From the NCBI GenBank assembly GCA_006844605.1, contig SPJN01000013.1:760-64759 (forward strand): 64,000 bases of DNA. Reading direction: 5' to 3'. Below, in pieces: positions 2,090-29,285 of this stretch. The notes under the pieces were generated by a model. It made no database searches. It was not told the origin of the DNA and was given only the letters and a program-made list of their open reading frames with translations. A program made the position numbers and the translations under genes. Position 1 is the stretch's first letter, and the number at the start of each line of letters is the position of its first letter. Source of the stretch: Hyphomicrobiales bacterium. GTDB taxonomy: Bacteria; Pseudomonadota; Alphaproteobacteria; SPJN01.

Positions 2090-2099
2090 AGGACCAACC

Positions 2100-5851: not shown

Positions 5852-5873
5852 CAGATGCAAGTGAAAACGCACC

Positions 5874-6818: not shown

Positions 6819-6821
6819 AAA

Positions 6822-10053: not shown

Positions 10054-10220
10054 CCAGATTATTTGTTGAAGGATCGGGTGGCAATCTATTTGTGGGTGCG
10101 GATTTCTGTGTTATTCGGCATTTGGGGTGTTGGTCAGTTCAAACAATTCACTAATTGGCTATAAATGTGGTGGTATTTACACTTGAAGCCGGGCCTCATT
10201 TTTTCCATAATGAACTTTCC

Positions 10221-10397
10221 AACTGGTGCTCTTTACGCGTAATGCCTCTGGCATGGTCAGGTGTATAGCTAGACCCAAACTTATTGAGCGGATTATGGCG
10301 CGATAAGGCCAAATTTCCTTATCTAGCGCTCACAGGTTCGCTTATTTAGATAAGGAAATTTGGCCTTATCGCTTACTCTTAGGTATTGAGCCCAGTT
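10221..10397 (+). ncRNA. candidate retron msr-msd non-coding RNA (hypothetical)
   Basis: Intergenic region directly upstream of the effector + RT gene pair. An imperfect inverted repeat, 'aactggtgctc' at 10221-10231 against 'gagcccagtt' at 10388-10397, could serve as the a1/a2 pair (~177 nt apart). The 26-bp perfect hairpin at 10300-10372 inside it would be the msd stem. The boundaries are not proven. Confidence 0.25.
10300..10372. repeat. perfect inverted repeat (26-bp arms, 21-nt loop)
   Basis: 'gcgataaggccaaatttccttatctag' … 'tagataaggaaatttggccttatcgc'. No U-tract follows it. It is flanked by the 8-bp direct repeat 'tattgagc' at 10282-10289 and 10384-10391. Confidence 0.85.
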
Positions 10398-10399
10398 TG

Positions 10400-11353: not shown

Positions 11354-12300
11354 AGCCATCCGAACTGTTGCGCAATCAATTCTCTTTGTCATCGAACGAG
11401 TTGCAGCGGTACGTAAATTCGTGCCCTCATAGATACAAAACATACAATATTAGAAAGAGAAATGGTGGCGCACGGGAGATCTCCCAACCTTCTAGGGATT
11501 TAAAGATCGTCCAGAGGTTTCTGATTGATGAGCTGTTGATAGAGAATCTAATGGTTCATAAGGCGGCGACAGCTTATCGAAAGGGCCGGAACATTGTGGA
11601 TAATGCTCGGCCGCATTTAGGCAATCAGTTTCTGCTGAAAATTGATCTTGAGGAATTCTTCCCATCCATCAAAGGAGATGACTTCGAGAAATACCTTTCT
11701 GAGAAATTTCCGATGGAGGAAGCCGAAGTTGCCCTGCTGACTAGAATTTTCTTTAAATCTGATAATGGCGAGCTAAAGCTAAGTATTGGATCGCCTGGTT
11801 CGCCCCTAATTTCGAATGCTCTGATGTTTCGTTTTGATAATGTGATTTCAGATTATGCTGACAGGATGAATGTAGCTTATACGCGCTACTCAGATGATAT
11901 GACGTTCTCAACAAACGAACGAGGGGCTTTATTCGATTGGCCGAAAATGGTTGGAGACGAGCTGGGCAGGTTGGATTATCCCACTCTTAGACTTAACCCT
12001 GACAAAACTGTGTTCTCATCAAAGAAATTCAACCGTCATGTCACAGGTATTACGATTACAAATGAGGGTACTGCTTCGATCGGTAGAGGGCGAAAGCGAG
12101 AGTTGAGATCGAGGCTGTTCAATGTTCAAAATTTGAACGCGGAAGAGCGGCGGCAATTGAGGGGACATATTGCTTTTGCCGCACAGGTGGAGCCAGATTT
12201 TGTGGAAAAACTTGGACAAAAGTACGCTAACGAACTTCAAGCTTTGTCGCGCAGTGATCCTGATAACGTTGATGTAAATCCGTCAAAGAAGGATTCTTGA
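11350..12300 (+). CDS. retron-type reverse transcriptase
   Basis: 316 aa. RT motifs: 'RKRNGGAREISQP' (1), 'FLLKIDLEEFFPSI' (2), 'SIGSPGSPLISNALM' (B-like), 'YTRYSDDMTF' (YxDD). Also the two retron-diagnostic motifs 'NARPH' (NAxxH) and 'HVTGITI' (VTG). Confidence 0.85.
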   Translation: MKPSELLRNQFSLSSNELQRYVNSCPHRYKTYNIRKRNGGAREISQPSRDLKIVQRFLIDELLIENLMVHKAATAYRKGRNIVDNARPHLGNQFLLKIDLEEFFPSIKGDDFEKYLSEKFPMEEAEVALLTRIFFKSDNGELKLSIGSPGSPLISNALMFRFDNVISDYADRMNVAYTRYSDDMTFSTNERGALFDWPKMVGDELGRLDYPTLRLNPDKTVFSSKKFNRHVTGITITNEGTASIGRGRKRELRSRLFNVQNLNAEERRQLRGHIAFAAQVEPDFVEKLGQKYANELQALSRSDPDNVDVNPSKKDS

Positions 12301-12437
12301 TATAGGTCATCTAGGCTATAGGGATTTTGGGTGTTTCAATGTGGCGTAAAGTCTTGGGCACAATATGGACACAAAATGGTCACAGCGCAGTGCAGCCAAA
12401 ATAGCCGTTCTGTAGCCTGTTGATTTCATTGACAAAA

Positions 12438-12514
12438 TGGTGGGCGATACAAGATTTGAACTTGTGACCTCTGCCATGTCAAGGCAGCACTCTAACCAAC
12501 TGAGCTAATCGCCC
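12438..12514 (-). tRNA. tRNA-Val (anticodon GAC)
   Basis: The reverse complement reads GGGCGATTAGCTCAGTTGGTTAGAGTGCTGCCTTGACATGGCAGAGGTCACAAGTTCAAATCTTGTATCGCCCACCA. Cloverleaf: 7-bp acceptor stem, anticodon stem CTGCC/GGCAG with loop TTGACAT (anticodon GAC), T-loop TTCAAAT, and an encoded CCA. Confidence 0.9.
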
Positions 12515-15315: not shown

Positions 15316-16167
15316 TTATTTCAGGCGAATTTCCACACGGCGGTTGGCTGCGTTTGCAACGCCGTCACCGGTTTTAACGGCGGGCAGGTTTTCACCGACA
15401 CCCTTCGTTGAAATGCTACCGCCTGCAATGCCTTGCTTGGTCAATGCTTCCTTGACCGCCTCGGCGCGCCAGATTGACAGCTGCTTGTTATAGGCATCTG
15501 CACCGGATGTATCGGTATGACCAACCAGTTGGATCAGCTTGGACTTGCGAGAGCCAAAGGCATCTGCAACACGCTTGATGATGGTGCCGGCATCTGCGCT
15601 GACGGCAGCTGAATCAAGGTCGAACCAAACAACAAAGCGGTTCGGGCCTTTAGGCTGTACCATCGGTGCTTTCTTGACGGGCTTGGCCATTGGCTTGGCG
15701 GCAAGCTGTGCCAATGCGGCGTCCAGATCACTCTGGCAGGCAGCAATGTCTTCGGCCTGGTGATTTTCTTCGGCTTCTTGCAACCAGCAGTCATAGGCAA
15801 CCTGTGCCTTGGCAGCAACGGCGGGCATCCGCGCTGCGGCGTCTGAGGCCAAAGCCTCTGTCAGGCGGGTGTAGTACGCTGCGGCTGTGGCGCGATGTTC
15901 TTCGGGCATACGGCGAGAGTCTGCCATATCGGGGCCAACAGAAGCGCCGCCGCCAAGTGCTTCGGCTTTACCAAGGAAATGGTCGCCATCACACCAGTCA
16001 GCTTCGTCATATTCGCCCTTACCCAGGCTGGCATAGCCAGTGTGCAGAGCATCATTAAAGGGCGAAGAGGCCCCGGACATACCGGCAATGGCATCAGCAT
16101 CCATTGTTCCCGGCAAGGCACAGGCACCAAGGCCAAGCATGGCCACAGAAATCAAAATTTTACGCAT
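15316..16167 (-). CDS. OmpA-family lipoprotein (peptidoglycan-associated C-terminal OmpA domain)
   Basis: 283 aa. Lipobox 'LGLGAC'. C-terminal OmpA-like domain '…GHTDTSGADAYNKQLSIWRAEAV…NRRVEIRL'. Confidence 0.8.
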   Translation of the reverse strand: MRKILISVAMLGLGACALPGTMDADAIAGMSGASSPFNDALHTGYASLGKGEYDEADWCDGDHFLGKAEALGGGASVGPDMADSRRMPEEHRATAAAYYTRLTEALASDAAARMPAVAAKAQVAYDCWLQEAEENHQAEDIAACQSDLDAALAQLAAKPMAKPVKKAPMVQPKGPNRFVVWFDLDSAAVSADAGTIIKRVADAFGSRKSKLIQLVGHTDTSGADAYNKQLSIWRAEAVKEALTKQGIAGGSISTKGVGENLPAVKTGDGVANAANRRVEIRLK

Positions 16168-16546: not shown

Positions 16547-18220
16547 ATGCAGGGACTGAGCGTGTCATTTCAAATGATTTCAAAAGTTTGTATGAGGCTT
16601 GCCCTCAGTTTGATGGTCATGGCGACATTGTTGGGTGCGGGCTTGGGCACCGGCCCTGCACGCGCGCTTGACCTGACGGGGCTGAACAGTTCTGTCGTTG
16701 CGGTTCATGTCTATAAGAATGGCAGCGAAACGGCGGTTGGAACCGGGACGATCGTGTCTGACCTTGGGGATATTCTAACGTCATCAACGCTGATTGCCGG
16801 TGCCGACCAGATCAAGGTGTCAAACCCCGGCGGCACGTCAACGCTGGCTGCCCTGCACCGTGAAAACCGGTTGCTTGATATCGCGGTGATTTCCGCACCC
16901 GGACTTGATATCGCCATTCCGGCAACCATTGCACAGGGCGGCGCGGCCCCCGGTGATGGTATTTTTGCCGTCACGGCGATGACTGTGAATGGTCAGGCAG
17001 GCACATTGTCCTCCGCCCCCGGTGTGATGGGCGATATGAGCCAGTCTTCAGATGGTGCCATGATTTCCAGCCACAGTGCGGCAGTGCCGGAAAGTGGCCT
17101 TGGTGCCCCGCTGGTTAATGGCTGTGGCGAGATATTGTCAATGAACCGTGCCGCAGGCGCGGGCAATCAGGCTGCCATGTTTCAGGATATCGTCAGCTTT
17201 ATGAATGCTGCGGGCGTTGATATGCGCCAGACTACATCCGTGTGTTCAATCGGTGTGAATACGGCGGGCACTGCTGCGCCAGTGGCCCAGGCCCCCGCAA
17301 TGCAGAACATGGGGCAGGATCCGGCAGCACAATATCCGACTGCGCAAACCCCTGCCGCACCACAAGTGACAGGTTCGCAAACTGTTGACCCGGCGATGGA
17401 AGCGGCCATGAATGCCGCCCGTGACGCCCGTGTAGATGCCCAATTCGCCCGCCAGCAGGCTAATTCTGCGGAACAGGCTGCCCGGCAGGCCGAAGCTGTC
17501 TTGCAGAATATCGCAGCGTCAGGTGCTGATACCACCGGGGCCGAAGCTGCCGCCACTGCCGCGCGTGAACAGGCCAGTGCCGCCGCAGCCTATGCTGTGC
17601 AGCTTGAGCAAATTGCCAACCAGAAAGATGCACAGGTCGCCGCCATGCGCGGTGAATTGCAGGCCGCAGGTGCAGAACGCACTGTGGGGCAGGAGCAGGC
17701 TGCTGACAAACAACAGATGATGCAAATCCTTGTCGGGGTTGGGGCATTGATCGCGATTGCTGTGATCGGCTTTGTCCTGTTCAGGGTGATCAAGGGCCGT
17801 CAGTCCACAACCGAAATGCAGGAAGAATTGACCGCCGTGCGTCGTCGGACGCCGCGGACGGATCATGCCGCTGCCGCTGCGTCGGGCGGTAACAATACAC
17901 CTGATGTGGTTTTAAGTGGGCTTGATAGCGAAAATCAGCCACTGAAAGTGACGGTCTCGGGCAAGGACCTGGCCGCCAAATCCTCTATCATTGTGGGGCG
18001 CAGCCCCTCGCACGCTGATGTGTTGATCAATGATGTGGAGATGTCGCGTGCCCATGCTGCCATTCGGGTCAGCTCAAGCGGGTATATGATTGAGGATATG
18101 GGCTCTACCAACGGTACAATGGTGAACGGTGCCCCCGCCGGGCAGGGTAGTCCGGTGCAAATCCGTGATGGCGATTCAGTCTTTTTCGGTAGCGTAAAAT
18201 TGAAAGTGGAAATTTTGTGA
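16547..18220 (+). CDS. membrane protein: periplasmic trypsin-like (S1) protease-like domain, TM helix, cytoplasmic FHA domain
   Basis: The track ORF 16457 is trimmed to the ATG at 16547, which has an 'agggag' Shine-Dalgarno. Signal peptide, S1-like domain (His in 'VAVHVY', Asp in 'LLDIAVI'; the Ser context 'PESGLGAP' diverges from GDSGGP), Ala/Gln-rich linker, TM helix 'ILVGVGALIAIAVIGFVLF', C-terminal FHA (…GRSPSHADVLINDVEMSRAHAAI…STNGTMVNG). Confidence 0.7.
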   Translation: MQGLSVSFQMISKVCMRLALSLMVMATLLGAGLGTGPARALDLTGLNSSVVAVHVYKNGSETAVGTGTIVSDLGDILTSSTLIAGADQIKVSNPGGTSTLAALHRENRLLDIAVISAPGLDIAIPATIAQGGAAPGDGIFAVTAMTVNGQAGTLSSAPGVMGDMSQSSDGAMISSHSAAVPESGLGAPLVNGCGEILSMNRAAGAGNQAAMFQDIVSFMNAAGVDMRQTTSVCSIGVNTAGTAAPVAQAPAMQNMGQDPAAQYPTAQTPAAPQVTGSQTVDPAMEAAMNAARDARVDAQFARQQANSAEQAARQAEAVLQNIAASGADTTGAEAAATAAREQASAAAAYAVQLEQIANQKDAQVAAMRGELQAAGAERTVGQEQAADKQQMMQILVGVGALIAIAVIGFVLFRVIKGRQSTTEMQEELTAVRRRTPRTDHAAAAASGGNNTPDVVLSGLDSENQPLKVTVSGKDLAAKSSIIVGRSPSHADVLINDVEMSRAHAAIRVSSSGYMIEDMGSTNGTMVNGAPAGQGSPVQIRDGDSVFFGSVKLKVEIL

Positions 18221-19806
18221 TATTGCGTTTCGGTGATCGCGCCCGTTGGGGGGGTGCGTCAACCTTTGACATGATGGTGACAGGATTGGGACGGCGGCTT
18301 CCCGCATGGGGTGGAGCTGCCGCCCTTTTCATTTTCGCCTGCCTTGCCCTGACCAGCCCGGCACAGGCCCGGCTTGATGTCGATAAGGTGGAGCGGTCCA
18401 TCGTCCGGATTGAAGTGGGGCGTAGCTTCGGCTCAGGCTTTTTTGTGACAAATGATGGGGTGATCGCCACCAATTACCATGTCGTCGCCGGTGCCGAACG
18501 CATCATTATCCGGCCCAGTGGTGACGTCAGCGGCTATGAAGGCCGGGTGTTGTGGCAGTCCAAGCAAATGGATTTGGCGCTGTTAAGCGTGCAGGGCGTG
18601 ACGCGCCCGCCTCTGACCTTGTTCATGGGTGATCCGCAGCGTGCGTCGAATGTCAACGTGGTTGGCTTTTCTGCCAAGTGTGATGCGGCTGCGGGTGGCC
18701 GCACCTTGCATACCTGCGCCACCAGTGGCGTTATTTCGCTGTTGGAAAATGATCGTGCCCGTGCCCGCCGCGTCGTGCAATCCGATGCGGTGATCAATCG
18801 TGGCTCATCAGGCGGACCGTTGTTGGATGATTGCGGCCGTGTGGTCGGCGTTGCGGCGCAAGGCTATGGCGGTGCAGGGGGCGAGGCGCTGTATGTCGCG
18901 ATCCATACCACGTCGCTTGTAAAGTTTATGGGTAGTGACCAGCTGAAGCCGTTGGCCCTAAAGCCTGTCATGACGAAGACAACCTGTAAGACCAATGTCG
19001 CTGGCCCTGATGAGGAGGCGCGCAAACGTGCCGACAGCGCCAGCCGCAGTGCCGCTGATGCCAATCAAAAGGCACAGGATGCCTTGAACACGACCGCCAA
19101 GGCGCAGGCGCAGGCCGAAGCGGCCTCAAAAGAAGCGGAAGCTGCCACGAAAGAGGCAGAGCGGTTGAAGCAGCAATTAAAGCTTCAAGAAGAGCGTTTG
19201 GCGGCTGAACAGGCCAAACAGGAAGCCGAACGTGCGCGCCAGAAAAATGTCAATCTATCGATTGTGATCGGGGTCGGGGTGACGGTTTTGTTGACCCTGT
19301 TGACCCTTGGCTTGGCATTAAGACGGCCGCGCCAGCAATTGATTCAGGTGGTTGAACAGGTGTCGCGAACGGTGATGCCCTCAAACAGAAGTGCCGCCAA
19401 CAAACCGAATGATGCGGTGCGCCGCAAGTCAACAATTGCCCCCCCCGGCGCCCCTGCGGAACATGATCTGCTGTTGATTGTCACAAAACCCGATGGTCAC
19501 CAGTCGCAATATACTCTTGATGCTGCCAAGCTGGGCCAAACATGGTTCGGCGTCACCTTTGGCCGTCATAAGGGGCTGGTGGACCATGTGATCGAATCGC
19601 CGGAATTGTCACGTAGACATTTCCGTATTCGGTGGCAAAATCAAGGCTTTGAAATTGAAGACCTGAATTCAACAAACGGAACGTTGTTGAACGGTGTCGC
19701 GCTTTTAGCCTATAAGCCGAACAGGCTGAGGATGGAAGACGAGATCAAGCTGGGCCGCGTCAAGGCGCGCGTCAGCAAGGTCAAACACGAAACCGGAACA
19801 AAATAA
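18217..19806 (+). CDS. membrane protein: periplasmic trypsin-like serine protease (canonical triad), TM helix, cytoplasmic FHA domain
   Basis: GTG start at 18217 overlaps the upstream stop (GTGA); an alternative ATG lies at 18271. Signal peptide. 'TNYHVV' (His), 'MDLALL' (Asp), 'GSSGGPL' (Ser). Coiled-coil Ala/Glu-rich linker, TM helix 'IVIGVGVTVLLTLLTLGLAL', C-terminal FHA (…SRRHFRIRWQNQGFEIEDLNSTNGTLLNG). Confidence 0.75.
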   Translation: MILRFGDRARWGGASTFDMMVTGLGRRLPAWGGAAALFIFACLALTSPAQARLDVDKVERSIVRIEVGRSFGSGFFVTNDGVIATNYHVVAGAERIIIRPSGDVSGYEGRVLWQSKQMDLALLSVQGVTRPPLTLFMGDPQRASNVNVVGFSAKCDAAAGGRTLHTCATSGVISLLENDRARARRVVQSDAVINRGSSGGPLLDDCGRVVGVAAQGYGGAGGEALYVAIHTTSLVKFMGSDQLKPLALKPVMTKTTCKTNVAGPDEEARKRADSASRSAADANQKAQDALNTTAKAQAQAEAASKEAEAATKEAERLKQQLKLQEERLAAEQAKQEAERARQKNVNLSIVIGVGVTVLLTLLTLGLALRRPRQQLIQVVEQVSRTVMPSNRSAANKPNDAVRRKSTIAPPGAPAEHDLLLIVTKPDGHQSQYTLDAAKLGQTWFGVTFGRHKGLVDHVIESPELSRRHFRIRWQNQGFEIEDLNSTNGTLLNGVALLAYKPNRLRMEDEIKLGRVKARVSKVKHETGTK

Positions 19807-22773
19807 ATGGCTTCTGAGCATACAAATGCCCTACCGCGTGGTTATCGCATTGACGAGTATGAACTCGTCCGTGTGCTGGGGGCCGGTGGGTTTGGCATCA
19901 CCTATCTTGGGTTTGATCACAATCTTGATAAGCAGGTTGCGATCAAGGAATATTTGCCGCGTGAATTGGCAACCCGTATAGATGGCTCAACCGTTGCGCC
20001 ACATTCGTCGGGCGATCAGTCCGATTTTGAATGGGGGTTGGACCGCTTTTTGGAAGAAGCGCGGGTTTTGGCCCGGTTCGATCATCCCAATATTATCAAG
20101 GTTTATCGTTTTTTCCGTAATCACGGCACCGGTTATATCGTGATGGATTACGCGGAAGGTGAAAGCCTGTCCGCCTATTTGGGGCGTCAGGGCACCATCA
20201 CCGAACCGCAATTGCGCGGTATCTTGATGCCGTCCTTGTCGGGTCTGAATATGATCCATGCCGGCGATGTGCTGCACAGGGATATCAAGCCGGGCAATAT
20301 CATGATCCGTACCGATGGTACGCCGGTCTTGATTGACTTTGGTGCTGCCCGTCAGGCGATGAACAATAAAAGTCTGTCTGTGACGTCTATTGTGACGCCC
20401 GGCTATGCCCCGATTGAGCAATATTCCACCAAGGGCAATCAAGGCCCGTGGACGGATATTTATGCGTTGGGGGCTGTTGCCTATCGCTGTTTGATGGGCC
20501 ACACGCCTGAGGATGCGACGGACCGTATTCTTGATGATGAAATGGTGCCCGCGGTTGAAGCTGCCAAGGGCAAGGCCAGCCCGGAATTTTTGGCTGCGAT
20601 TGATGCGGCATTGGCAATACGCGAGGCTGATCGACCCCAAACGATTGCCGATTGGATCGAGATGTTCGGTGAAGTGCCCGAAAATGTCTTGTCTATCGGC
20701 GGTGGTCGCAGCCGCAGCAATGAAACCAGTCGTTTGAATGTGTCATCTGGCGAACCGAAATCCGGTGGCGGCAGCAAGACGGGCCTGTTTGTCGGGCTTG
20801 GGTTGTTGGTCGCCGCGGGGCTTGGTGCCGGTGGCTATTTCGCCATGGGCGGCTTTGGCGGTGGCGATGGTGGCAGTACAGCTGGTGGTGGGCAGGGCAC
20901 AACCGCCGCTGTGCCGCAACAGGCCACTGTGGCCTTGACCGCAGAACAGATCACAACCGTGCAGGCGCAACTCCTCGCGCTGGGCTATCGCGTTGCAAAG
21001 AACGGTGAAATGGATGCGCGCACCAAGTTGGAACTGACGCGCTTTCAAATGGAAAAGGGCTTGCCCCAATCCGGTGTTGCCGATGCGCCCACCATGCAGC
21101 GTTTGAAGGTTGAACGTGATCGCGTGGATCAAAAGGCATGGCTTGAAGCATCCGGTGGTCATACGGTCAGCGGCTATGCTGCCTATTTGAAGGAATGGTC
21201 AGACGGGAATTACCGGACGCGGGCAGAAGCGGCGATCAAACAATTGCAGGCCGATGAAGCGCGCCTGAACGAGGCTGAAAAGCGGGCTGCGCAATTGGCC
21301 AAGGATGATGATGCCTATGCCAAGGCGCAAGGCCAGCACACACTTGATGCCTATCGCGCCTATTTGAAGAATTTCCCCAAGGGACGCCATGTTGCGCAGG
21401 CAACGCAGGCGTTTGACCGCCTGAACGCGGTTCGTAAGGCCGAAGAAAAGGCCAAGCAGGATCGTGCAGAAACCACACTGCGCAAGGAGGCGCAGACCCT
21501 GCTGATCCAGATGGGGTATGATGTTGATAACCGTTCAGGCCGGGCAACAACAAAAACCAACAAGGCGGTCGAAGAATTCCGGGGCGAGGTGGGCCTGCCT
21601 GTATCGTCCAAGGTGGACCTGATCTTGTTGTCCAATATGCGCCAGGTCGCCGAAGATCGTTTGTGGGCCAAAACCAAAAAGGCCCGCAGCGCCCGCGCCT
21701 ATGAAACCTATCTCGACAGTTATCCTGATGGCCGCTATGCCGCTGAAGCACGTGACAATCTGGGTAAGGCCAAGCAGATGGCTGCAATGGCGGATGCCGA
21801 AAAAACCCTGACCCGTTCCATCCAGACAGAGCTGGGACGCCTTGGTTATAAGGTGCGGACTAATGGTGATTTTGATACGGCAACCGCAACGGCCATTGAG
21901 CTGTTTGAGCAAGAAACAGGTCGCAAGGTTACCGGCGAAATGTCAGACGAGCTGTTGGCAAATCTAAAGGCCACCAAGACACGTCCGGGTAAGGAAATGA
22001 AGATTGGCGGTATCGTCAAGGATTGCGAGGCTTGTCCGCCATTGGTTGTGGTGCCGACCGGTTCATTGACCATGACAACCAAAACAAAAAAGGGTGAACC
22101 AAGCGTCCGTAAAATTGCGATTGATACGCCCTTTGCCGTTGCGGTGGCTGAGGTGACGTTTGATGAATGGGATGCCTGCGTCGCCGCCTTTGCCTGCCAG
22201 CATAAGGGTGATCCCGGCTTTGGTAAGGGGCAGCTGCCTGTGGTTGGCGTCAGCTTTAATGACGCGCAAAATTATGTCGGCTTCCTGTCTGCCAGAACGG
22301 GCAAACCCTATCGGTTGTTAAGTGAAGCGGAATGGCAGTATACCGCTGGTGCCGGTGTCAGCAGTGCCTATGCATTTGGTGACAATGCACAGGAAATTTG
22401 CGCCTATGGCAATGTTGCGGGCAAGGAATCAGGCTTTGACTGGGGCAAGGATGGCTGTACCGACCAACACGGCCAGACAACCGCCCCTGTGAAATCATAT
22501 AAGCCGAACAAATTCGGTGTCTATGACATGCATGGTAATGCTGCCGAATGGGTGGCTGATTGCTGGCACGATGATTATGAAGGCGCGCCGACAAACCGTA
22601 AATCATGGGAAAGCGGCGGTGATTGTAACTGGCGCATCCTGCGTGGCGGTTCGTGGCGCAACGCGGTAGATTACAGCACGCTTGACCGCCGCTCCAAAAT
22701 GTTCGGCGTGGTGCGGGCCAATACAAACGGTTTCCGTGTTGTGCGTGACTTGGTGGACGGAGAAGGGCAATGA
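19807..22773 (+). CDS. Hanks-type Ser/Thr protein kinase with TM helix, three periplasmic peptidoglycan-binding (PG_binding_1-like) repeats and a C-terminal FGE-sulfatase (SUMF1-like) domain
   Basis: 988 aa. The start follows the upstream stop directly. Kinase motifs 'LGAGGFGITY', 'AIKEY', 'HRDIKPGNIM', 'DFGAAR', 'APIEQ'. TM helix 'LFVGLGLLVAAGLGAGGYFAM'. Three 'LG(Y)…G.D…T' PG-binding-like repeats alternate with 'Y..YL…P.GRY' repeats. The C-terminus has 'GDPGFGKGQLPVVGVSFNDAQNY…EAEWQYTAGAG…YDMHGNAAEWV…RGGSW…GFRVVRD', typical of FGE-sulfatase. Confidence 0.85.
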   Translation: MASEHTNALPRGYRIDEYELVRVLGAGGFGITYLGFDHNLDKQVAIKEYLPRELATRIDGSTVAPHSSGDQSDFEWGLDRFLEEARVLARFDHPNIIKVYRFFRNHGTGYIVMDYAEGESLSAYLGRQGTITEPQLRGILMPSLSGLNMIHAGDVLHRDIKPGNIMIRTDGTPVLIDFGAARQAMNNKSLSVTSIVTPGYAPIEQYSTKGNQGPWTDIYALGAVAYRCLMGHTPEDATDRILDDEMVPAVEAAKGKASPEFLAAIDAALAIREADRPQTIADWIEMFGEVPENVLSIGGGRSRSNETSRLNVSSGEPKSGGGSKTGLFVGLGLLVAAGLGAGGYFAMGGFGGGDGGSTAGGGQGTTAAVPQQATVALTAEQITTVQAQLLALGYRVAKNGEMDARTKLELTRFQMEKGLPQSGVADAPTMQRLKVERDRVDQKAWLEASGGHTVSGYAAYLKEWSDGNYRTRAEAAIKQLQADEARLNEAEKRAAQLAKDDDAYAKAQGQHTLDAYRAYLKNFPKGRHVAQATQAFDRLNAVRKAEEKAKQDRAETTLRKEAQTLLIQMGYDVDNRSGRATTKTNKAVEEFRGEVGLPVSSKVDLILLSNMRQVAEDRLWAKTKKARSARAYETYLDSYPDGRYAAEARDNLGKAKQMAAMADAEKTLTRSIQTELGRLGYKVRTNGDFDTATATAIELFEQETGRKVTGEMSDELLANLKATKTRPGKEMKIGGIVKDCEACPPLVVVPTGSLTMTTKTKKGEPSVRKIAIDTPFAVAVAEVTFDEWDACVAAFACQHKGDPGFGKGQLPVVGVSFNDAQNYVGFLSARTGKPYRLLSEAEWQYTAGAGVSSAYAFGDNAQEICAYGNVAGKESGFDWGKDGCTDQHGQTTAPVKSYKPNKFGVYDMHGNAAEWVADCWHDDYEGAPTNRKSWESGGDCNWRILRGGSWRNAVDYSTLDRRSKMFGVVRANTNGFRVVRDLVDGEGQ

Positions 22774-23054
22774 TGCGCTCATACCGCATAGGCCGGGGGG
22801 CAACGTGCGAGATCATTGTTGATCATAAAAGCGTATCGCGCCTTCATGCGGAATTATCCGTGTCGGCGGATGGACGATATTATCTGACCGATTGCAATTC
22901 ACGTGCAGGATCGTTCAAACAGGATAATGGCGAATGGGTGCGGGTACGACAGTCATTTGTTGAACCGACCCAGCCGTTGAAGTTGGGAGAGCAGGAGTTA
23001 ACGGCGGAAGAGGCGATGGAGCGTCGGTCCGCCAAAATATCACATAAGGTTTAG
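22770..23054 (+). CDS. FHA-domain protein (stand-alone)
   Basis: 94 aa. 'IGRGATCEIIVDHKSVSRLHAELSV…YYLTDCNSRAGSF'. The start overlaps the kinase stop (ATGA). Confidence 0.7.
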   Translation: MMRSYRIGRGATCEIIVDHKSVSRLHAELSVSADGRYYLTDCNSRAGSFKQDNGEWVRVRQSFVEPTQPLKLGEQELTAEEAMERRSAKISHKV

Positions 23055-23092
23055 TGTGATACAAAGGGGGAATGCCAGACGGGGCTTAAATT

Positions 23093-24493
23093 ATGGCTGG
23101 TTTTTGGAAACGGGATAAAAACAAGAATAAAAAGGACAAGGGGCAAAGCAAGGTTGTTTTGCCCGATATGCCTGTGAGCGTGGCCAACCCCAAAACAGGC
23201 TTGATGGGCGCGGTTGAGCCGCTGAAACCGTTGGTTGGTGACGAGGAAGTGTCCCGCCGGTCAGAGGATGATACCGTCCAGCTTGACGTTGAAACAAAAA
23301 TGGGGATGCGCACCACCGGCACGCCCAGCCCCCGTGAAATCGATACGCCCGCTGATGATAGCGAAGAAACAATGGTGCTGGGTCGTGATGCGACGGCAGA
23401 AGCGCCCCCATCAGACGACCCTTCTGCGGGGCCAGAAAACAATCTCCCAGAAAATAACGCGGTAGAGCCAACATCGTCGGATGAAGAAACAATGGTGCTG
23501 GGGCGTGCGCCAAGCGCACCGGTGGCACCAACCACGCCGATAGAGCCAAGCGTATCTGATAACGACAGCCCGCCGATGGCTGAACCGGAAGCAGAACCGG
23601 AAACAGCAGCAACCGGTCAGGCGTCGGATGAAGAAATCACCAAGCCTGACACAGTGATCAGACCATCAAGGTCGATTAACGAGGAGCCGCTATCCCGCGC
23701 CCAGACTCTGGGCCCGAAGGTGATGGCGGATGCTGACAAATATGCCGATATATTGCCCGTCGGTGATGATGACGAAGACCCAGCGCCTGACCCAATGGTT
23801 GATGCGCACCCCGCCGCTGATCCAGCACAGGACGTAGACGCTGACGCTGATGAAGACGCTGCTGAAGGCGCAGACGCCGATACAGAAGACGCTGTAGAAG
23901 CGGACCCTGATGTCGAAAAAGATGGCGCGCTTGATAAAGAGGTAGGCGTCGAAGTCGATGACGCAGAGAACATCACCCCCGTCAGTGCCGTGAGGAAATC
24001 CGGTACGCAGGCTGAGGGTGAAGAAGAAGCAACCCGGATATTCGGTGCGCGCCGCAAGATGCAAAAACCTGTCGCACCGTTATTGGATGTAAAGGTTGCG
24101 GGCGCATCGAAGCAGACTGACCCGAACGAGGCGATGGCAGACCCGATTGTGGGCTGGTTGGTAATTGTTGACGGACCGGGCGTGGGAAACTGCCTGCCGT
24201 TGGGCTATGGCACCAACCCTGTTGGGCGTGCCCCTGAACTGCGCGTGGCGTTGACATTTGGGGATTCGCAAGTGTCCCGCGGCACCCACGCCACAGTGAT
24301 TTATGATCCCCGCGGGCGGGATTTTTATGTTCAGCATGGCGGTGGCACCAATCTGACATATCTTGATGACAAGCCCTTGCTTGAGCCAAAGCAGCTCAAC
24401 CCTCGTGATCGCATTACGATCGGTGACACGGTTCTGATGTTGGTCCCCCTATGTGACAAAAACTTTGATTGGCAGGATCTGAATGATGAGTGA
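23093..24493 (+). CDS. acidic low-complexity protein with C-terminal FHA domain
   Basis: 466 aa. D/E/P/A-rich N-terminal 370 aa containing a duplicated 'EETMVLGR' motif. C-terminal FHA ('…ELRVALTFGDSQVSRGTHATVIYD…NLTYLDDKPL'). Confidence 0.7.
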   Translation: MAGFWKRDKNKNKKDKGQSKVVLPDMPVSVANPKTGLMGAVEPLKPLVGDEEVSRRSEDDTVQLDVETKMGMRTTGTPSPREIDTPADDSEETMVLGRDATAEAPPSDDPSAGPENNLPENNAVEPTSSDEETMVLGRAPSAPVAPTTPIEPSVSDNDSPPMAEPEAEPETAATGQASDEEITKPDTVIRPSRSINEEPLSRAQTLGPKVMADADKYADILPVGDDDEDPAPDPMVDAHPAADPAQDVDADADEDAAEGADADTEDAVEADPDVEKDGALDKEVGVEVDDAENITPVSAVRKSGTQAEGEEEATRIFGARRKMQKPVAPLLDVKVAGASKQTDPNEAMADPIVGWLVIVDGPGVGNCLPLGYGTNPVGRAPELRVALTFGDSQVSRGTHATVIYDPRGRDFYVQHGGGTNLTYLDDKPLLEPKQLNPRDRITIGDTVLMLVPLCDKNFDWQDLNDE

Positions 24494-25463
24494 ATCAGCA
24501 AAAACAAGCTATCAGGATGATCGCGTCTCTGCGGACCAAATGCAGGGTGGCCGGGATTATCAGGAAGATGATTACAAAGTGTCATGCATCAGCGCCCCCG
24601 CCGACGAAACGTCAGGCGAGTTGTTGATGGTATTGGCTGACGGTATGGGCGGCCATGCCGGCGGGGCCGAAGCGTCTGACATCGCCGTGCGCTATTTCAC
24701 GGATCATTTCATTGGATCAGATGGCGCGGTAAATGATCGGTTTATGGCGGCGCTTGACGCGGCCAATAATGGCCTGGAACAGGAAGTAGAAAAAAACCCT
24801 GACCTTGAAGGTATGGGCTGCACTTTGGTTGGCCTGCACCTGACCGATCAGGGGGCGCGCTGGATCAGCGTGGGGGATTCCCCGCTTTATCTGGTGTCAT
24901 CAGGCCGGATTGTGCAAATCAATGACGATCATTCAATGGCCCCCGTATTGGCGCAATTCGTCAAGGAAGGGCGCATGACAGCGGAGGAGGCGTCGAAGGA
25001 TCCGCGCCGCAACGCCCTTCGGTCTGCCGTTGTGGGCGAGGAGCTAACCCTGATTGATCTGCCCCATGATCCCTTGCCGATCCATAAGGGTGATGTGTTG
25101 GTGTTGGCCTCTGACGGGTTGCAAACACTGCCCAATGCCAAGATCAATGACATTGTGGTCAAGCATGGCGATAAACCCGTTGATCAACTGGTTGAAAAAC
25201 TGTTGCAGGCCGTCACGGATGCGGGTCGTCGGCGGCAGGATAACACAACGGTAATGGTGTACCGTGCTGATCGGCTGCTGGGCGAGGAGCCGCGCTCAGA
25301 CGATTTGACGATTGATCCCAATTCCTTGGAAGAGGAAATGGATGCCATCATGAATGCGGGCAGCGCAGGCGGTGCAGACGAACAATTGCCTCTTGCCCTG
25401 ATTGCAGCTGGTATTGTGGCCATTGTTGGCTTGGGCGTAGTGGCCTATATGGCGCTGATGTAG
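24483..25463 (+). CDS. PP2C-family Ser/Thr phosphatase with C-terminal TM anchor
   Basis: 'LADGMGGHAGG', 'GCTLVGLHL', 'VGDSPLYLV', 'LASDGL' metal-binding motifs. C-terminal TM helix 'LALIAAGIVAIVGLGVVAYMALM'. The start overlaps the upstream stop. Confidence 0.85.
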   Translation: MMSESAKTSYQDDRVSADQMQGGRDYQEDDYKVSCISAPADETSGELLMVLADGMGGHAGGAEASDIAVRYFTDHFIGSDGAVNDRFMAALDAANNGLEQEVEKNPDLEGMGCTLVGLHLTDQGARWISVGDSPLYLVSSGRIVQINDDHSMAPVLAQFVKEGRMTAEEASKDPRRNALRSAVVGEELTLIDLPHDPLPIHKGDVLVLASDGLQTLPNAKINDIVVKHGDKPVDQLVEKLLQAVTDAGRRRQDNTTVMVYRADRLLGEEPRSDDLTIDPNSLEEEMDAIMNAGSAGGADEQLPLALIAAGIVAIVGLGVVAYMALM

Positions 25464-25583
25464 GTGCCCTAAAAAATCACCTATCGGGCGACAGATTTTT
25501 GTCGCCGCTCCGTTTAATGAATATGACCTACAGCTTTTGGGGTGTGGGATCATGTCTCTAGGATTATTGAAACGGAGCATAAA

Positions 25584-26144
25584 ATGACCCGGAAAATACG
25601 TTTTGACAGCTTGCCTGCGTCCAGTCGCCTTTTGGCTGGTGCTGTGGCCGGTATTGTGGCGCTGACAGTCACAGGGGCGGTGGTTGCTGATTCCCACGGG
25701 GAAAAGGCCAAGACACGCGCAGCGCAACAGTTTAGCGCGATGGATGCCAATGGTGATGGCAAGCTGACGCGAGAGGAAATGAAGGCCCATCATAAGGCCC
25801 GTCATGCAAAAAAGGACACCAACGGTGATGGCAAAATTAGCCGGGATGAGTTCAAAAAAGCGGGCAAAAGCGAATGGGCGGCGCGCGCAGATCGCATGTT
25901 TGACCATATGGACCGCGACGGCGACGGTTTTTTGACCGACGCTGACAAGCCGAAGGACAAGGATATGGACAAGCGCCGTGCTGCCATGTTCGACAAGATG
26001 GACAAGGATGGTGACGGTGCCATCAGCCGGGACGAAGCAGAATCTGCCCGCATGTTCATGCGTCATCATATGAAGAAAAAACGCGGTCATGATTACGATG
26101 ATCATGATGATGACGATCACAGCGGTCATTACGGGCATCGCTAA
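25584..26144 (+). CDS. secreted EF-hand calcium-binding protein with His-rich C-terminus
   Basis: Trimmed to the ATG at 25584 (Shine-Dalgarno 'acggag'). Signal peptide, then four 'D.(N/D)GDG.(L/I)(T/S).(D/E)E' EF-hand loops. C-terminal 'HDYDDHDDDDHSGHYGH'. Confidence 0.7.
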   Translation: MTRKIRFDSLPASSRLLAGAVAGIVALTVTGAVVADSHGEKAKTRAAQQFSAMDANGDGKLTREEMKAHHKARHAKKDTNGDGKISRDEFKKAGKSEWAARADRMFDHMDRDGDGFLTDADKPKDKDMDKRRAAMFDKMDKDGDGAISRDEAESARMFMRHHMKKKRGHDYDDHDDDDHSGHYGHR

Positions 26145-26186
26145 ACGCTTATCACGGCCAAGTCAGGCGCGTATGCTGCTTTCATT

Positions 26187-26765
26187 ATGGCAACACAATA
26201 TGATCAGGATGCGCGCTTGATGCGCCAGGTTGCGGCGGGGGATAAACGCGCCTGCCGCACCTTGCTTGATCTCTATTTGGCATCCACTTGGCGTGTTGCC
26301 TTGGCCTGTACCGGACGGGCTGACCTTGCCGATGATTTGACACAAGAAGCATTGGCGCGGCTTTGGCAGGTGGCCCCCAAATGGCAGGCGCGGGCGCGGG
26401 TCTCTACATGGCTTTATCGTGTGGTAAAGAATCTGTGGATTGATCATCTGCGCAAACAGCGACCCGGCGGTGAAGCCGTGGACGACATAGCAGAACTGGC
26501 GGATGATCGTGCCGATCCGCATGACCGGTATCAGGCGTTGCAGGCAGGCGCGACGATGGCACAGGCGGTTGCGCAATTACCGCCACGCCAGCGGATTGCG
26601 GTCACACTATATTATTTTGAAGACCTGTCGATTGATGACGGGGCGCAGGTGATGGACATTGGGGCTGATGCATTCCAATCACTGATTGCGCGGGCCCGTA
26701 AGGGGTTGAAGGTGATGCTGGCCGATCACCGGCAGGATTTGATGGAGGGGCTGACGGATGAGTGA
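26187..26765 (+). CDS. ECF (sigma-70 family group 4) RNA polymerase sigma factor
   Basis: 192 aa. Region 2 'WLYRVVKNLWIDHLRK'. Region 4 'LPPRQRIAVTLYYFEDLSIDDGAQVMDI'. Confidence 0.8.
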   Translation: MATQYDQDARLMRQVAAGDKRACRTLLDLYLASTWRVALACTGRADLADDLTQEALARLWQVAPKWQARARVSTWLYRVVKNLWIDHLRKQRPGGEAVDDIAELADDRADPHDRYQALQAGATMAQAVAQLPPRQRIAVTLYYFEDLSIDDGAQVMDIGADAFQSLIARARKGLKVMLADHRQDLMEGLTDE

Positions 26766-27096
26766 TCAAAATATGGACGATCAAACCTTGGACAAATTAT
26801 TGGCGGCTGCGCCGCGCCCATCGCCTGATGCGGCGCTGATGGGCCGGGTGATGGCCGATTTTGATGTGGCCCAAAATGCCATTGGCTGGCGTGATTTGGC
26901 GCAGATATTCTGGCCCTTTGGTCCGTTGTGGCAACCGTTGACCGCGCTGGCGCTGGTCGCGGTGATGGGGGTGGGGCTGGCACCCGCCGATATTGCGGTT
27001 TCTGATGATGCGCTTTTATTGGCGCAGGCAGATTTTGGCACGCTTGTGTTGGGGCAGGATTATGCTGCGATCCTTGAGGGGGGAGGAAACCAATGA
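26758..27096 (+). CDS. putative anti-sigma factor (single TM helix)
   Basis: 112 aa. Its start overlaps the sigma-factor stop. One TM helix 'LTALALVAVMGVGL'. Called from its position after the ECF sigma gene only. Confidence 0.4.
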   Translation: MSDQNMDDQTLDKLLAAAPRPSPDAALMGRVMADFDVAQNAIGWRDLAQIFWPFGPLWQPLTALALVAVMGVGLAPADIAVSDDALLLAQADFGTLVLGQDYAAILEGGGNQ

Positions 27097-27626
27097 CCCG
27101 TAATCGTTTGTTGGCGCTGGCATTGTTTGTTTCGGTTGCCGTAAATATTTTTGCCGCGTCGGTATTTTTGGGGCCAGCCTTCCGGCAGGGGCCATATCTT
27201 GGCCCAATGACCGGGGAAAGGCATTTGGGAAGCCACGGGGAAAGGCATGGGGAAAGGCATGGGGAAAGGCATGGGCTGGACCTGCATCAGCTTGAACATT
27301 TGTCTGACGCCTCGCAACAAAAAGTGCGCGCCATTTGGCGGGATAGCCGCCGCGACCTTCATCGTGAGTTTCGTGCCTCGATAAAGGCGCGCCGTGGCTT
27401 GACCGAAGCACTGACCGCCGAAACTTATGATGCGCAGGCGGTGATGGCGGCGCAGGCGGCGCTTGATGCGGCGATGGGGCGGGTGCGGGCGCTGACTAAT
27501 CAGGCGGTCTTGGATAGTGCCAGCGTTCTGTCGGATGAGGAACGGGAAGAATTTTTCAAACGTGGTTTCCGGCCCCGGCATGGCAAACAGTCATCATCAG
27601 ATGATGATAGAGATGATGATGATTAG
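27093..27626 (+). CDS. periplasmic Spy/CpxP/ZraP-family (LTXXQ-type) metal-stress protein, His-rich
   Basis: 177 aa. Signal peptide, 'HGERHGERHGERHG' repeat, LTXXQ-like 'LSDASQQ' and 'LSDEERE', acidic tail. Confidence 0.5.
   Translation: MTRNRLLALALFVSVAVNIFAASVFLGPAFRQGPYLGPMTGERHLGSHGERHGERHGERHGLDLHQLEHLSDASQQKVRAIWRDSRRDLHREFRASIKARRGLTEALTAETYDAQAVMAAQAALDAAMGRVRALTNQAVLDSASVLSDEEREEFFKRGFRPRHGKQSSSDDDRDDDD
27237..27272 (+). repeat. 12-bp tandem repeat x3 (ggggaaaggcat) encoding (GERH)n
   Basis: Read directly from the sequence. A degenerate fourth copy lies just upstream. In-frame and coding. Confidence 0.9.
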
Positions 27627-27644: not shown

Positions 27645-29285
27645 TCAGATGATCTGCCACTGCCCGGTGGCAAGGGCATAGGCCCCGATCAGGGCATTGG
27701 CGCAGGCGTGGGCGATTATCGCATCGCTGACGTTTTTCCGCCGCAAATACAGCAGCCCGAAACACAGGCCTGCAAGGCCCGCCAATATCCAATCGCCGTG
27801 TAATGCGGCGAACAGGCCGCTGCTGACCACAAGCGCGACAAGTCTTGTTGCCAGTGAATTGCGGGTGTTCAGGCGCGCCAGAATATAGCCACGGAAAAAC
27901 AGTTCTTCCACCACCGGAATGATAAGGCTGGTGCCGATCAGGCGCGCAGTGACCCACAGGGTAAATGCGGCAGCAGACAGGGCACCTAAGCGGTCGGTCA
28001 GTATATCGTCGGCAGGGGTGTTGCGCAGAGCCACGATCCAAACCACACCGATCACCAAGCCCGTTGCGATGGCAAGCGGATCGGGGGTGAGCTTGATGCC
28101 GCGCAGCACCGGCCAAAACAGCCACAATGCAGCAGCCACAACCGCAATCCGCGCAGGATAGGCCAGTGCCGGTACTTCAATGACTGCACCTGCGATCAAA
28201 GATGTTGTCATCAATATGATGAATGGCAGGATATAGGCCGCAAGCGGGTCTTGGCGGAAAGGGGTGGTCGATGCTTGGGGCGCGGGATCAGTTTGCTTGA
28301 TAAACCATGTCGATTTTTCAACCAGCACAATAATGCTGATATTCAGGATCAGGAACATGATCCACCCGGCATAGGAATGAAACCCGTCGATCGCCAGTTC
28401 CGGCGAAATATCTGCGCCGACAATGATCAACAGGGCAACCCGCACGGTGTTTAGAAGATAGCTTAGAATGATGGCGATGGGGATCAGCATGGCAAACCGC
28501 GCGACCCGTAGATGGTTGCTCATCAAAAACAGATACGACCCCAATAGGGTGGTGGTCAGGATCAGGCCCTGAACGCCTGAACAGGTGTGACCGACAAAAA
28601 CGCGGAACCCTTCTACGCCCATCACGAAATCCTTGTCCCCATATAGCGGGGTGTAGCCAAGGATGGTCAACAGCGCAGCAACCCCATCAAATGTGGTGCG
28701 GGTAACAAGCGGGATTTGCCATGATGCTTGCAGCGTATAAAACCCGATCAATGGCGATATGGTGGCAATGATCACGAACCAGAACGGTTTTCGTTTCGCA
28801 GCTTCAAGCCATTGTGCAGGCGTGGCCAGAATGAACACAACACCGATCACGGCGCATAAGGCACCGCCCAGCCACATGGCAAGGCCATATGATTGTATCA
28901 ATGCCGGATCAGAAACAGCCAACAGGCCGGGCAGTGACAACAGCAATACCCCGCCGATATGAACCGCCAGCCATGTGGGCGACAGGCTTGATGCCAAGCG
29001 GGCCTGCCGCATTGCGTGGGTGATTTGATGGGTTTGATAAAGGCAAAGCAACAACAGCGCCACCGCGCCGCCAAATATCATTTCATAGAAAAAATTCGTC
29101 AGCGTGCAGAATGTCGTGTCGGATGCCAAAAACCGGCACATATCGACCGGCATATCAGGGTGCCCGGCGACCGGACCTGAAATATAGATAATGAATAACA
29201 GTCCCAATTCCACGGCAAACAGACAGGTCAGTGCTGTGACCTGCCAAATGAGTGAGGTTGGAATAGGCCGTGCCGCGTGGGTCAT
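27645..29285 (-). CDS. exosortase fused to CPBP (CAAX-type) intramembrane protease, XrtE-like, VPEID-CTERM system
   Basis: 546 aa polytopic membrane protein. Exosortase signatures 'GHTCSGVQGL' (catalytic Cys), 'LLNTVRVALL' (NxxR), 'FHSYAGWIMF'. C-terminal CPBP motifs 'VVEELFFRGYI', 'FAALHG', 'AHACANA'. Three VPEIS/APEVS-CTERM mini-genes lie nearby. Confidence 0.75.
   Translation of the reverse strand: MTHAARPIPTSLIWQVTALTCLFAVELGLLFIIYISGPVAGHPDMPVDMCRFLASDTTFCTLTNFFYEMIFGGAVALLLLCLYQTHQITHAMRQARLASSLSPTWLAVHIGGVLLLSLPGLLAVSDPALIQSYGLAMWLGGALCAVIGVVFILATPAQWLEAAKRKPFWFVIIATISPLIGFYTLQASWQIPLVTRTTFDGVAALLTILGYTPLYGDKDFVMGVEGFRVFVGHTCSGVQGLILTTTLLGSYLFLMSNHLRVARFAMLIPIAIILSYLLNTVRVALLIIVGADISPELAIDGFHSYAGWIMFLILNISIIVLVEKSTWFIKQTDPAPQASTTPFRQDPLAAYILPFIILMTTSLIAGAVIEVPALAYPARIAVVAAALWLFWPVLRGIKLTPDPLAIATGLVIGVVWIVALRNTPADDILTDRLGALSAAAFTLWVTARLIGTSLIIPVVEELFFRGYILARLNTRNSLATRLVALVVSSGLFAALHGDWILAGLAGLCFGLLYLRRKNVSDAIIAHACANALIGAYALATGQWQII

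Follow-up and report, generated by a model that had tools for sequence, protein, structure and literature searches.

We describe here a six-gene operon in a 64,000-nucleotide stretch of DNA (the window) from an uncultured marine alphaproteobacterium (Hyphomicrobiales bacterium, contig SPJN01000013.1, positions 760 to 64,759 of the forward strand). The operon occupies positions 16547-25463 of the window, and its sequence identifies it as an inner-membrane Ser/Thr phospho-signaling module, with a Hanks-type kinase and a PP2C phosphatase predicted to face the cytoplasm, and sensor-type domains and a protease pair predicted to lie in the periplasm. In known Hanks/PP2C/FHA systems, such as those of the Gram-positive cell wall and the system for type VI secretion (T6SS), the FHA domains recruit cytoplasmic or membrane partners, and what sets this module apart is that FHA domains continue through the membrane into a pair of periplasmic proteases, one active and one dead. 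We favor, with moderate confidence, a model of the operon as an envelope module in which phospho-threonine docking in the cytoplasm controls the tethered protease/pseudoprotease pair, and in which the product of the fifth gene is a GarA-like switch. Control of periplasmic proteolysis by phosphothreonine is an inference.

Organization of the operon

Six open reading frames (ORFs), g1 to g6, lie on the plus strand and are tightly coupled (Table 1). Genes g1 and g2 overlap in GTGA, g2 and g3 are joined as TAAATG, g3 and g4 overlap in ATGA, a 38-nt gap separates g4 from g5, and g5 and g6 overlap by 11 nt, ATGATGAGTGA. A coupled operon of six genes had been claimed in an earlier reading of this DNA by a model that had only the letters and the ORFs (the sequence-only reading), and the ORFs and junctions are as it described; searches with Pfam and NCBIfam profiles bear out every domain that it named. 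Comparison with an 87%-identical relative (locus L001) gives ratios of nonsynonymous to synonymous substitution (dN/dS) of 0.04-0.19 for all six genes, with dS about 1.1-1.4, which corresponds to purifying selection. The GC content of the operon is core-like at 0.55-0.56, as against 0.42-0.51 in the adjoining genomic island.

Upstream of g1 is a 380-nt leader that separates it from a divergent gene for an OmpA-like lipoprotein. No known RNA family was found in the leader with Rfam, scans of the window as a whole gave tRNA-Val and the ffh sRNA only, and a promoter and terminator scan returned counts near the shuffled expectation. The lipoprotein gene is also upstream in L001 and in a second, 69%-identical relative (L170), and may possibly be an accessory gene of the operon, although the association is unproven because the gene is not upstream in distant relatives.

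The protease pair and its topology

The sequence-only reading described g1 and g2 as carrying two S1 protease domains. There are indeed two S1 folds, but only g2 keeps the His-Asp-Ser triad, and g1 is a predicted pseudoprotease. In g2 (Trypsin_2 87 bits, FHA 61.6 bits with Pfam) the triad residues His88, Asp119, and Ser198 are invariant in the alignment of g2 orthologues, and the Cys206/Cys257 pair is likewise invariant. The AlphaFold model of g2 has a mean pLDDT of 77, with values of about 90 in the protease and FHA domains, and it is composed of the protease domain, a continuous helix of ~100 residues (264-365) that includes the transmembrane (TM) segment, a disordered linker preceded by the juxtamembrane motif LRRPRQQ, and the FHA domain. 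The closest solved folds are DegS protease domains, with a target-normalised TM-score of about 0.8. Pfam gave no PDZ match in either g1 or g2, and the NCBIfam equivalog models for DegS and DegP score 25-84 bits against the two proteins, below cut-offs of more than 400.

The Trypsin_2 match of g1 (29.6 bits) is barely over the 27.6 cut-off, its FHA domain scores 60 bits, and the stalk between the pseudoprotease domain and the TM segment is helical and rich in Ala, Gln, and Glu. In the family alignment the catalytic His of g1 is changed to Thr and the catalytic Ser to Leu, and since both are replaced, g1 is expected to be an incompetent protease. The Ser is also lost in the first-gene orthologues of L001, L002, L004, P0026, and L166, its position being occupied by Phe in L002, L004, and P0026 and by His in L166, and the first genes of the more distant relatives (L002, L004, P0026, and L166) keep the His and have lost the Asp. 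The dead domain is nonetheless maintained, as judged by a dN/dS of 0.13 in the g1 pseudoprotease domain. The alignments thus identify g1 and g2 as a conserved pair consisting of one predicted active protease and one pseudoprotease.

Topology was derived from hydropathy and charge rather than from a dedicated predictor. An N-terminal signal-like segment opens both proteins of the pair, with ARA at its end in g1 and AQA in g2; each protein then has a single strong TM segment (hydropathy 2.95 in g1 and 2.48 in g2), after which come basic residues and the FHA domain. In g3 a single TM segment follows the kinase domain, and Lys and Arg flank it on the kinase side only. The external part of g3 that resembles formylglycine-generating enzyme (FGE) contains eight cysteines, and these, together with the invariant Cys pair of the protease, fit an oxidising compartment. 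The signal-like segments, the single TM segments, and the basic flanks on the FHA or kinase side agree with the topology proposed in the sequence-only reading, and the sequence supports a predicted arrangement in which g1 and g2 each cross the membrane once, with periplasmic protease domains and cytoplasmic FHA domains.

The FHA proteins and the phosphatase

All four FHA domains of the operon pass the Pfam cut-off and keep the G-R, S-R-x-H, and N-G residues that bind phospho-threonine; in the family alignment G449/R450, S465/R466/H468, and N487/G488 are invariant or nearly so. The small protein g4 (FHA 50.9 bits, dN/dS 0.036) is orthologous to a small FHA protein of 124-159 amino acids (aa) encoded directly upstream of a MotA/ExbB gene in relatives.

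The g5 protein has a C-terminal FHA domain (32.4 bits), and its first 350 residues contain 82 Asp/Glu and 34 Lys/Arg, so that it is acidic as the sequence-only reading had it. The acidic insert is 47% identical to that of L001 and the FHA domain 92%. Over its C-terminal 130 residues g5 shares 50-65% identity with FHA proteins that are 132-228 aa long, and counterparts of g5 follow the MotA/ExbB gene in the loci examined. An acidic-x-T-[RKQ]-[IVL]-x-G motif is placed 35-45 residues ahead of the FHA domain in 11 loci, comprising g5 and its relatives, and g5 has three Thr motifs in its disordered region (Table 1).

The phosphatase g6 matches PP2C_2 in Pfam (43 bits) and the Stp1/IreP-type PP2C model of NCBIfam (138.7 bits, below the equivalog cut-off of 230), and the PPM metal-binding motifs YQEDD, DGMGG, GDS, SDG, and DNTT are present.

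The kinase and its periplasmic region

In Pfam, g3 scores 134 bits with Pkinase, 86 bits with PG_binding_1 over three stretches, and 145 bits with FGE-sulfatase (PF03781). The Hanks motifs are intact (GAGGFG, VAIK, HRDIKPGN, and DFG), as is a S/T-rich activation loop that ends in APIE. Three helical units of the form Y..YL..[FY]P.G.[HY]...A, at residues 444, 503, and 619 (21136-21780), alternate with the PG_binding_1 repeats and match no Pfam family.

The FGE-sulfatase domain named in the sequence-only reading holds as a fold, but the cysteines of FGE are missing and the domain is PvdO-like. Its closest structure is PvdO (5hha, E 4e-40), with FGE matches in the PDB at E of about 1e-10, and the PvdO equivalog model of NCBIfam gives 162.7 bits against a cut-off of 500. 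The segment where the FGE cysteines would sit, which we take to be the equivalent of human FGE Cys336/Cys341, reads GGSWRNAVDYSTLDRRS and has no Cys, and g3 reads RGGSWRNAVDYSTLDRRS after the GGS[WY] motif, so the FGE catalytic cysteine pair is not present. The domain is therefore predicted to be a lectin-fold binding module or a different enzyme, and not a formylglycine generator. A response to cell-wall status through the PG_binding_1 repeats, which the sequence-only reading had suggested, is plausible for the window lineage, but the repeats are not constant among related kinases, which carry varied periplasmic domains (FGE alone, PG_binding_1 with FGE, Beta_helix or PPC, PEGA, PDZ, and Sel1).

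We also considered targeting of the FGE domain of g3 by a diversity-generating retroelement (DGR) that would use the reverse transcriptase (RT) encoded at 11350-12300, FGE domains being well-known targets of DGRs. No repeat of at least 30 nt is shared by the RT region and g3 and there is no template/variable pair, the RT is of the type II-A retron class (363 bits) and is accompanied by an NDT effector, and the C-terminus of the FGE domain is conserved; the last 60 residues of g3 are 93% identical to those of L001, and the domain is thus not hypervariable. The DGR link is excluded on this evidence of repeats, RT type, and conservation.

Relatives and the larger cluster

In L001 (87% identity in g2, on a 3.07-Mb contig) all six genes, their order, and both flanks are as in the window, and in L170 the OmpA lipoprotein gene, g1, g2, and the start of g3 are recovered. 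We compared ten distant loci in addition (L002-L006, L166-L169, and L171), in which the g2 homologues are about 30% identical and the g5 FHA domain 50-65%. Dispersal of the genes had been named in the sequence-only reading as a finding that would count against the unit, and in the two close and ten distant loci they are not dispersed. The distant loci contain the same parts in another recurrent order, which runs from the small FHA protein through a MotA/ExbB-like protein with three TM segments, a g5-like FHA protein, and PP2C, to pseudoprotease-TM-FHA and protease-TM-FHA proteins, a short membrane-anchored protein (often vWA), and one or two kinases. The MotA/ExbB-like gene is between the small FHA gene and the g5-like FHA gene in nine of the ten distant loci, and a membrane-anchored vWA protein is present in most of them, but phmmer searches with the relatives' proteins gave no MotA/ExbB or vWA homologue in the 64-kb window. 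The operon appears from these comparisons to be a reduced member of a widespread, uncharacterised cluster family, without the ExbB/MotA-like channel and the vWA protein.

Two features of the distant clusters relate to this difference. The small FHA protein of the relatives ends in 'LPEGPVRRxxxTGEII' and the g5-like FHA protein begins with 'MPVYRGPDGKIIE'; in the window lineage the tail motif is absent from g4 and the N-terminal motif of g5 is degenerate. We suggest that these 'GEII' motifs bind the channel protein and decayed once the channel was lost. The second feature is the N-terminal TM segment of the relatives' vWA proteins, which carries an Asp and resembles TolR/ExbD, in clusters whose ExbB/MotA-like protein has no other stator partner; Pfam ExbD does not match these proteins, and the TolR-like reading rests on the motif. 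The related short 'GEII' motifs are found at L002 12375-12773 and 13570-14340, with equivalents in L003-L006, L166, L167, L169, and L171, and the vWA (or beta-rich) proteins at L002 11491-12357, L167 6952-8802, and L003 6180-6896 start with 'RE[IL]NIFSMSxLDLFASAxGAFILI'.

The protease class is not fixed in these clusters. In L166 (11553-14752) adjacent genes encode a pseudo-S1 protein (Ser to His) and an HExxH metalloprotease, each of which continues through a coiled coil and a TM segment into an FHA domain, and the metalloprotease uses the same chassis of stalk, TM segment, 'LRKPRF', and FHA domain as g1 and g2. This exchange of protease class on a common chassis suggests that what is selected is the tethering of a protease in the periplasm to an FHA domain in the cytoplasm.

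The fusion of a protease to an FHA domain had been called unusual in the sequence-only reading, and this did not stand; it is unstudied but not rare. An exhaustive profile search for the protease-TM-FHA architecture returned 3,074 proteins at E<=1e-30. The best 150 matches listed, at no more than 50% mutual identity, all have E <1e-82 and most match end to end. The Ser and His motifs are kept in 170 of the 178 sequences checked, and a TM segment beyond residue 200 is likewise present in 170. Other searches were less productive: a word-indexed search gave only about 30 protease-FHA clusters, a genome-collection scan with a full-length alignment and a generic FHA motif gave one family member (L006) in 80 loci, and a metagenome scan with a protease-only alignment and the generic motifs GNSGGPL and CGRVVGVNT gave no protease-FHA fusion in 80 loci. 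The family is nearly all from uncultured marine and environmental Proteobacteria, and the few named members are annotated as 'trypsin-like peptidase domain-containing protein' in Gammaproteobacteria or SAR86 metagenome-assembled genomes. The open-access literature searched contained no description of the protease-FHA fusion, or of a cluster with FHA, MotA/ExbB, PP2C, and kinase genes.

Relation to known systems

In Mycobacterium tuberculosis, one operon encodes the kinase PknB, with a TM segment and peptidoglycan-binding PASTA domains, the PP2C phosphatase PstP, also with a TM segment, FhaA, which has a long disordered region and an FHA domain, and the small FHA protein FhaB. This PknB/PknA-PstP-FhaA-FhaB(FipA) module (Rv0014c-Rv0020c) is the closest functional analogue of the window operon. 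Both join in one operon a single-TM Hanks kinase with external peptidoglycan-binding repeats, a membrane PP2C, and long and small FHA proteins, and docking of FHA domains on phospho-threonine at the membrane, predicted for the window operon, is a further common trait. The window operon departs from it in having PG_binding_1 repeats and a PvdO-like domain instead of PASTA, in lacking RodA and PbpA genes, in its Gram-negative host, and in fusing two FHA domains through the membrane to a protease and a pseudoprotease, for which there is no actinobacterial counterpart; all of the NCBIfam scores are far under the equivalog cut-offs.

The g5 protein invites comparison with OdhI and with GarA, in which an N-terminal ETTS motif, once phosphorylated, binds the protein's own FHA domain and so switches it. 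As in these, the FHA domain of g5 and its relatives is C-terminal and is preceded, at a distance of 35-45 residues, by conserved acidic-T-x-hydrophobic motifs, but the acidic insert of g5 is 250 residues long and contains additional copies of the motif, and no metabolic enzyme partner is evident. The likeness is architectural only, with 19.5 bits for g5 against the OdhI model NF041660 (cut-off 200). The resemblance of g2 to DegS/HtrA proteases (S1C) extends to the fold, the His-Asp-Ser triad, the inner-membrane tether, and the periplasmic orientation; g2 differs in having no PDZ domain, in its C-terminal anchor, which passes via a long helical stalk into a cytoplasmic FHA domain, and in its pairing with a dead paralogue.

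The T6SS PpkA-PppA-Fha1 (TagH) switch is likewise a post-translational control at the inner membrane, and combines a PP2C and an FHA protein with a membrane Hanks kinase that extends into the periplasm, but its FHA protein is unlike the FHA domains of the operon, which are fused to proteases. The best score with the TagH model TIGR03354 is 48.8 bits against a cut-off of 120.25, and, as the sequence-only reading had it, there is no T6SS gene among the ORFs scanned in the window (all of at least 450 aa and most neighbours of the operon, with small ORFs covered only partly). The scanned ORFs are housekeeping, defense-island, or envelope genes.

Two further groups share parts of the module. Kinase-TM-FGE-sulfatase is a recognised architecture, termed 'Proteo1' (bioRxiv 10.1101/2025.01.12.632604), which g3 has, but with three added PG_binding_1 repeats and without a linked DGR. 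TerY-P triads, in which vWA, PP2C, and Ser/Thr kinase genes are combined, have been described in conflict systems (PMC11090510, citing Anantharaman 2012), and the wider cluster family also joins these three in one operon. The window operon has no vWA, however, the vWA proteins of its relatives are membrane-anchored and not cytoplasmic and TerY-like, and its kinase carries, in place of a zinc ribbon or an OB fold, a periplasmic domain.

Proposed mechanism and alternatives

In the model that we favor, the kinase would be activated by a signal in the periplasm, probably one that concerns the cell wall or envelope, and would phosphorylate itself and the Thr motifs of g5, and possibly conserved Ser/Thr residues in the protease linkers. 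The FHA domains of g1 and g2 would dock on those phospho-threonines, and docking, acting through the rigid stalks, would alter how the protease and the pseudoprotease pair, cluster, or are positioned, and with this the proteolysis of some envelope substrate. The g5 protein would act as a GarA/OdhI-like switch in which its own phospho-motif competes for its own FHA domain, g4 could be a small competitor or adaptor, and PP2C (g6) would reset the system. If this is correct, cytoplasmic phosphorylation could set proteolysis in a compartment that is free of ATP, a simple route to the control of periplasmic enzymes from inside, and the conserved active/dead pair, the Thr motifs, and the natural variants with and without a motor offer direct, testable handles.

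Several considerations weigh against this model. The pairing of FHA domains with Thr motifs is drawn from the conservation of the motifs; phosphotransfer and the protease activity of g2 are predicted; and signaling may run in the other direction. The PG_binding_1 repeats are not constant in the family, and the cue may therefore not concern the cell wall. Homologues of g2 or g5 were the route to nine of the ten distant contexts, and the co-occurrence counts are accordingly not an unbiased census. Since most relatives also require an ExbB/MotA-like channel and a vWA protein, both absent from this operon, the window version could depend on partners encoded elsewhere, or be partly decayed, although purifying selection argues against decay.

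For the wider family we propose, tentatively and as a possibility short of probable, an undescribed envelope machine. It would comprise an ExbB/TolQ-like proton channel with a vWA protein on a TolR-like anchor, a Hanks kinase and PP2C, and FHA-tethered S1 or HExxH proteases, each active one with a dead partner, and the 'GEII' motifs would plug the phospho-switch into the channel. The window operon would then be a motor-less derivative in which the core works alone, carrying out inside-out, phospho-threonine-gated proteolysis.

The direction of signaling could be the reverse, with the DegS-like pair as a receptor for damaged-envelope peptides, the FHA domains informing the kinase, and a cytoplasmic output through g4 and g5, which would act on an enzyme or regulator in the manner of GarA and OdhI. 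DegS, the best structural match of g2, is a sensor protease, the layout of g5, with Thr motifs and an FHA domain, is GarA-like, and conservation within the family is highest in g4 and g5, with 50-65% identity across relatives in the g5 FHA domain against about 30% in the protease. We nevertheless think this outside-in sensor unlikely, since the missing PDZ domain is the peptide-sensing part of DegS, the kinase has a large periplasmic sensor region of its own, and no cytoplasmic target gene is conserved in the neighborhoods.

More doubtful still is a model in which the operon would supply the regulation and the proteases, as one half, to a proton-driven machine that spans the envelope and whose motor is encoded elsewhere or has been replaced, comparable to the control of T6SS by PpkA-PppA-Fha1 or the FHA-bearing GltG and GltJ of Agl-Glt gliding. 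The recurrent position of the MotA/ExbB gene in the distant loci, the Asp-bearing, TolR/ExbD-like segment at the start of the vWA proteins, and the 'GEII' motifs on the FHA proteins that flank the channel gene, lost or degenerate in the channel-less window lineage, are all in its favor. However, neither channel nor vWA gene is in the window, the ORFs scanned in the window include no T6SS or gliding gene, the TolR-like reading is motif-only, and the layout without a motor is kept in three related genomes, under purifying selection. For the wider family a proton-driven machine is a likely link; for the window operon it is not supported.

It is very unlikely that g2 is the site-1 protease for the extracytoplasmic function (ECF) sigma factor whose gene lies 0.7 kb downstream, cleaving the small membrane protein coupled to that gene and so placing an envelope-stress regulon, including a Spy/CpxP-like protein, under control of the kinase. 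The DegS-like fold of g2 fits such a role, and a sigma gene, a translationally coupled 112-aa protein with a single TM segment, and a Metal_resist protein are encoded on the same strand at 26187-27626, in the window and also in L001; but an ECF sigma gene adjoins the cluster in none of the ten distant loci, the putative anti-sigma matches no recognised domain and extends into the periplasm by only about 30 residues, and an EF-hand gene and a 78-nt gap lie between the operon and the sigma cluster. As an observation on this neighborhood, 25542-27626 encodes, on the same strand, a membrane-anchored EF-hand protein, an ECF sigma factor, the 112-aa possible anti-sigma, and the Metal_resist (Spy/CpxP-like) protein, an arrangement conserved in L001 only.

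Least probable, and very remote in our view, is an anti-phage or conflict system with a TerY-P-like kinase/phosphatase switch, an FGE ('FGS') sensor, and protease effectors: genes for Mrr, an MmeI-like enzyme, a helicase, T5orf172, and a type II-A retron are nearby (2010-12300), the kinase domain matches the PADLOC models mad6 and PD-T4-6, L005 and L166 have restriction-modification, RES, or AAA_15/21 genes in their vicinity, and FGS domains and TerY-P modules have been described in conflict systems (PMC7159879, PMC11090510), but the PADLOC matches reflect generic kinase and protease similarity (g1, g4, and g5 have none), there is neither a template/variable repeat pair nor a hypervariable FGE end, the L167 and L169 clusters are among housekeeping genes, and the sensor and proteases face the periplasm. 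Membership of the operon in the defense island was rejected, since the island ends at tRNA-Val (12438-12514), with three ordinary genes before the operon, the GC content of the two differs, and L001 keeps the operon and its flanks with different island cargo.

Table 1. Coordinates, in the window, of the operon genes, their predicted parts, and the divergent lipoprotein gene
Feature	Residues	Position (nt)	Strand	Description	Evidence
g1		16547-18220	+	Signal peptide, S1-fold pseudoprotease, stalk, TM segment, cytoplasmic FHA	Pfam, alignment, hydropathy
g1 pseudoprotease	65-196	16739-17134
g1 TM segment	394-412	17726-17782
g1 FHA	481-548	17987-18190
g2		18217-19806	+	Signal peptide, predicted active DegS/HtrA-like S1 protease, helix including TM segment, linker, FHA
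g2 protease	72-212	18430-18852
g2 TM segment	349-367	19261-19317
g2 FHA	446-513	19552-19755
g3		19807-22773	+	Hanks Ser/Thr kinase, TM segment, three PG_binding_1 repeats, PvdO-like FGE-fold domain
g3 kinase	18-281	19858-20649
g3 TM segment	327-345	20785-20841
g3 PG_binding_1 repeats	starts at 377, 557, 667	about 20935-21966
g3 FGE-fold domain	744-980	22036-22746
g4		22770-23054	+	94-aa stand-alone small FHA protein	Pfam FHA
g5		23093-24493	+	Acidic disordered N-terminal region with three Thr motifs, C-terminal FHA
g5 EETMVLGR, first copy	Thr93	codon 23369
g5 EETMVLGR, second copy	Thr133	codon 23489
g5 EATRIFGARRK	Thr314	codon 24032
g5 FHA	358-452	24164-24448			Pfam
g6		24483-25463	+	PP2C/PPM Ser/Thr phosphatase with C-terminal tail-anchor TM segment
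g6 PP2C domain	40-260	24600-25262
g6 tail-anchor TM segment	302-320	25386-25442		Six residues from the end
Divergent lipoprotein		15316-16167	-	C-terminal OmpA-like peptidoglycan-binding domain	Pfam OmpA 66 bits; lipobox LGLGAC

Other features of the window

The genomic island at 296-12514 is flanked by tRNA-Val, has a GC content of 0.42-0.51, and encodes a phage-type integrase (296-1504, minus strand), Mrr (2010-3005), an MmeI-like enzyme (3059-5851), a DEAD/ResIII helicase (6822-8873), T5orf172 (8827-10053), and the type II-A retron, in which the NDT effector (10397-11353) is followed by the RT. At the same island site L001 carries SIR2_2 cargo.

On the minus strand at 27645-29285, an exosortase (EpsH) domain and, C-terminal to it, an Rce1/CAAX protease domain are encoded in a single ORF of 546 aa. 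A 484-aa ORF at 52480-53934 (plus strand) contains RimM domains (residues 12-175) and TrmD (residues 244-468), and represents a fusion of rimM and trmD or else two genes that are in frame and have no stop codon between them. The Rfam ffh sRNA motif is at 50246-50287 (plus strand), directly upstream of the ffh (SRP54) gene.

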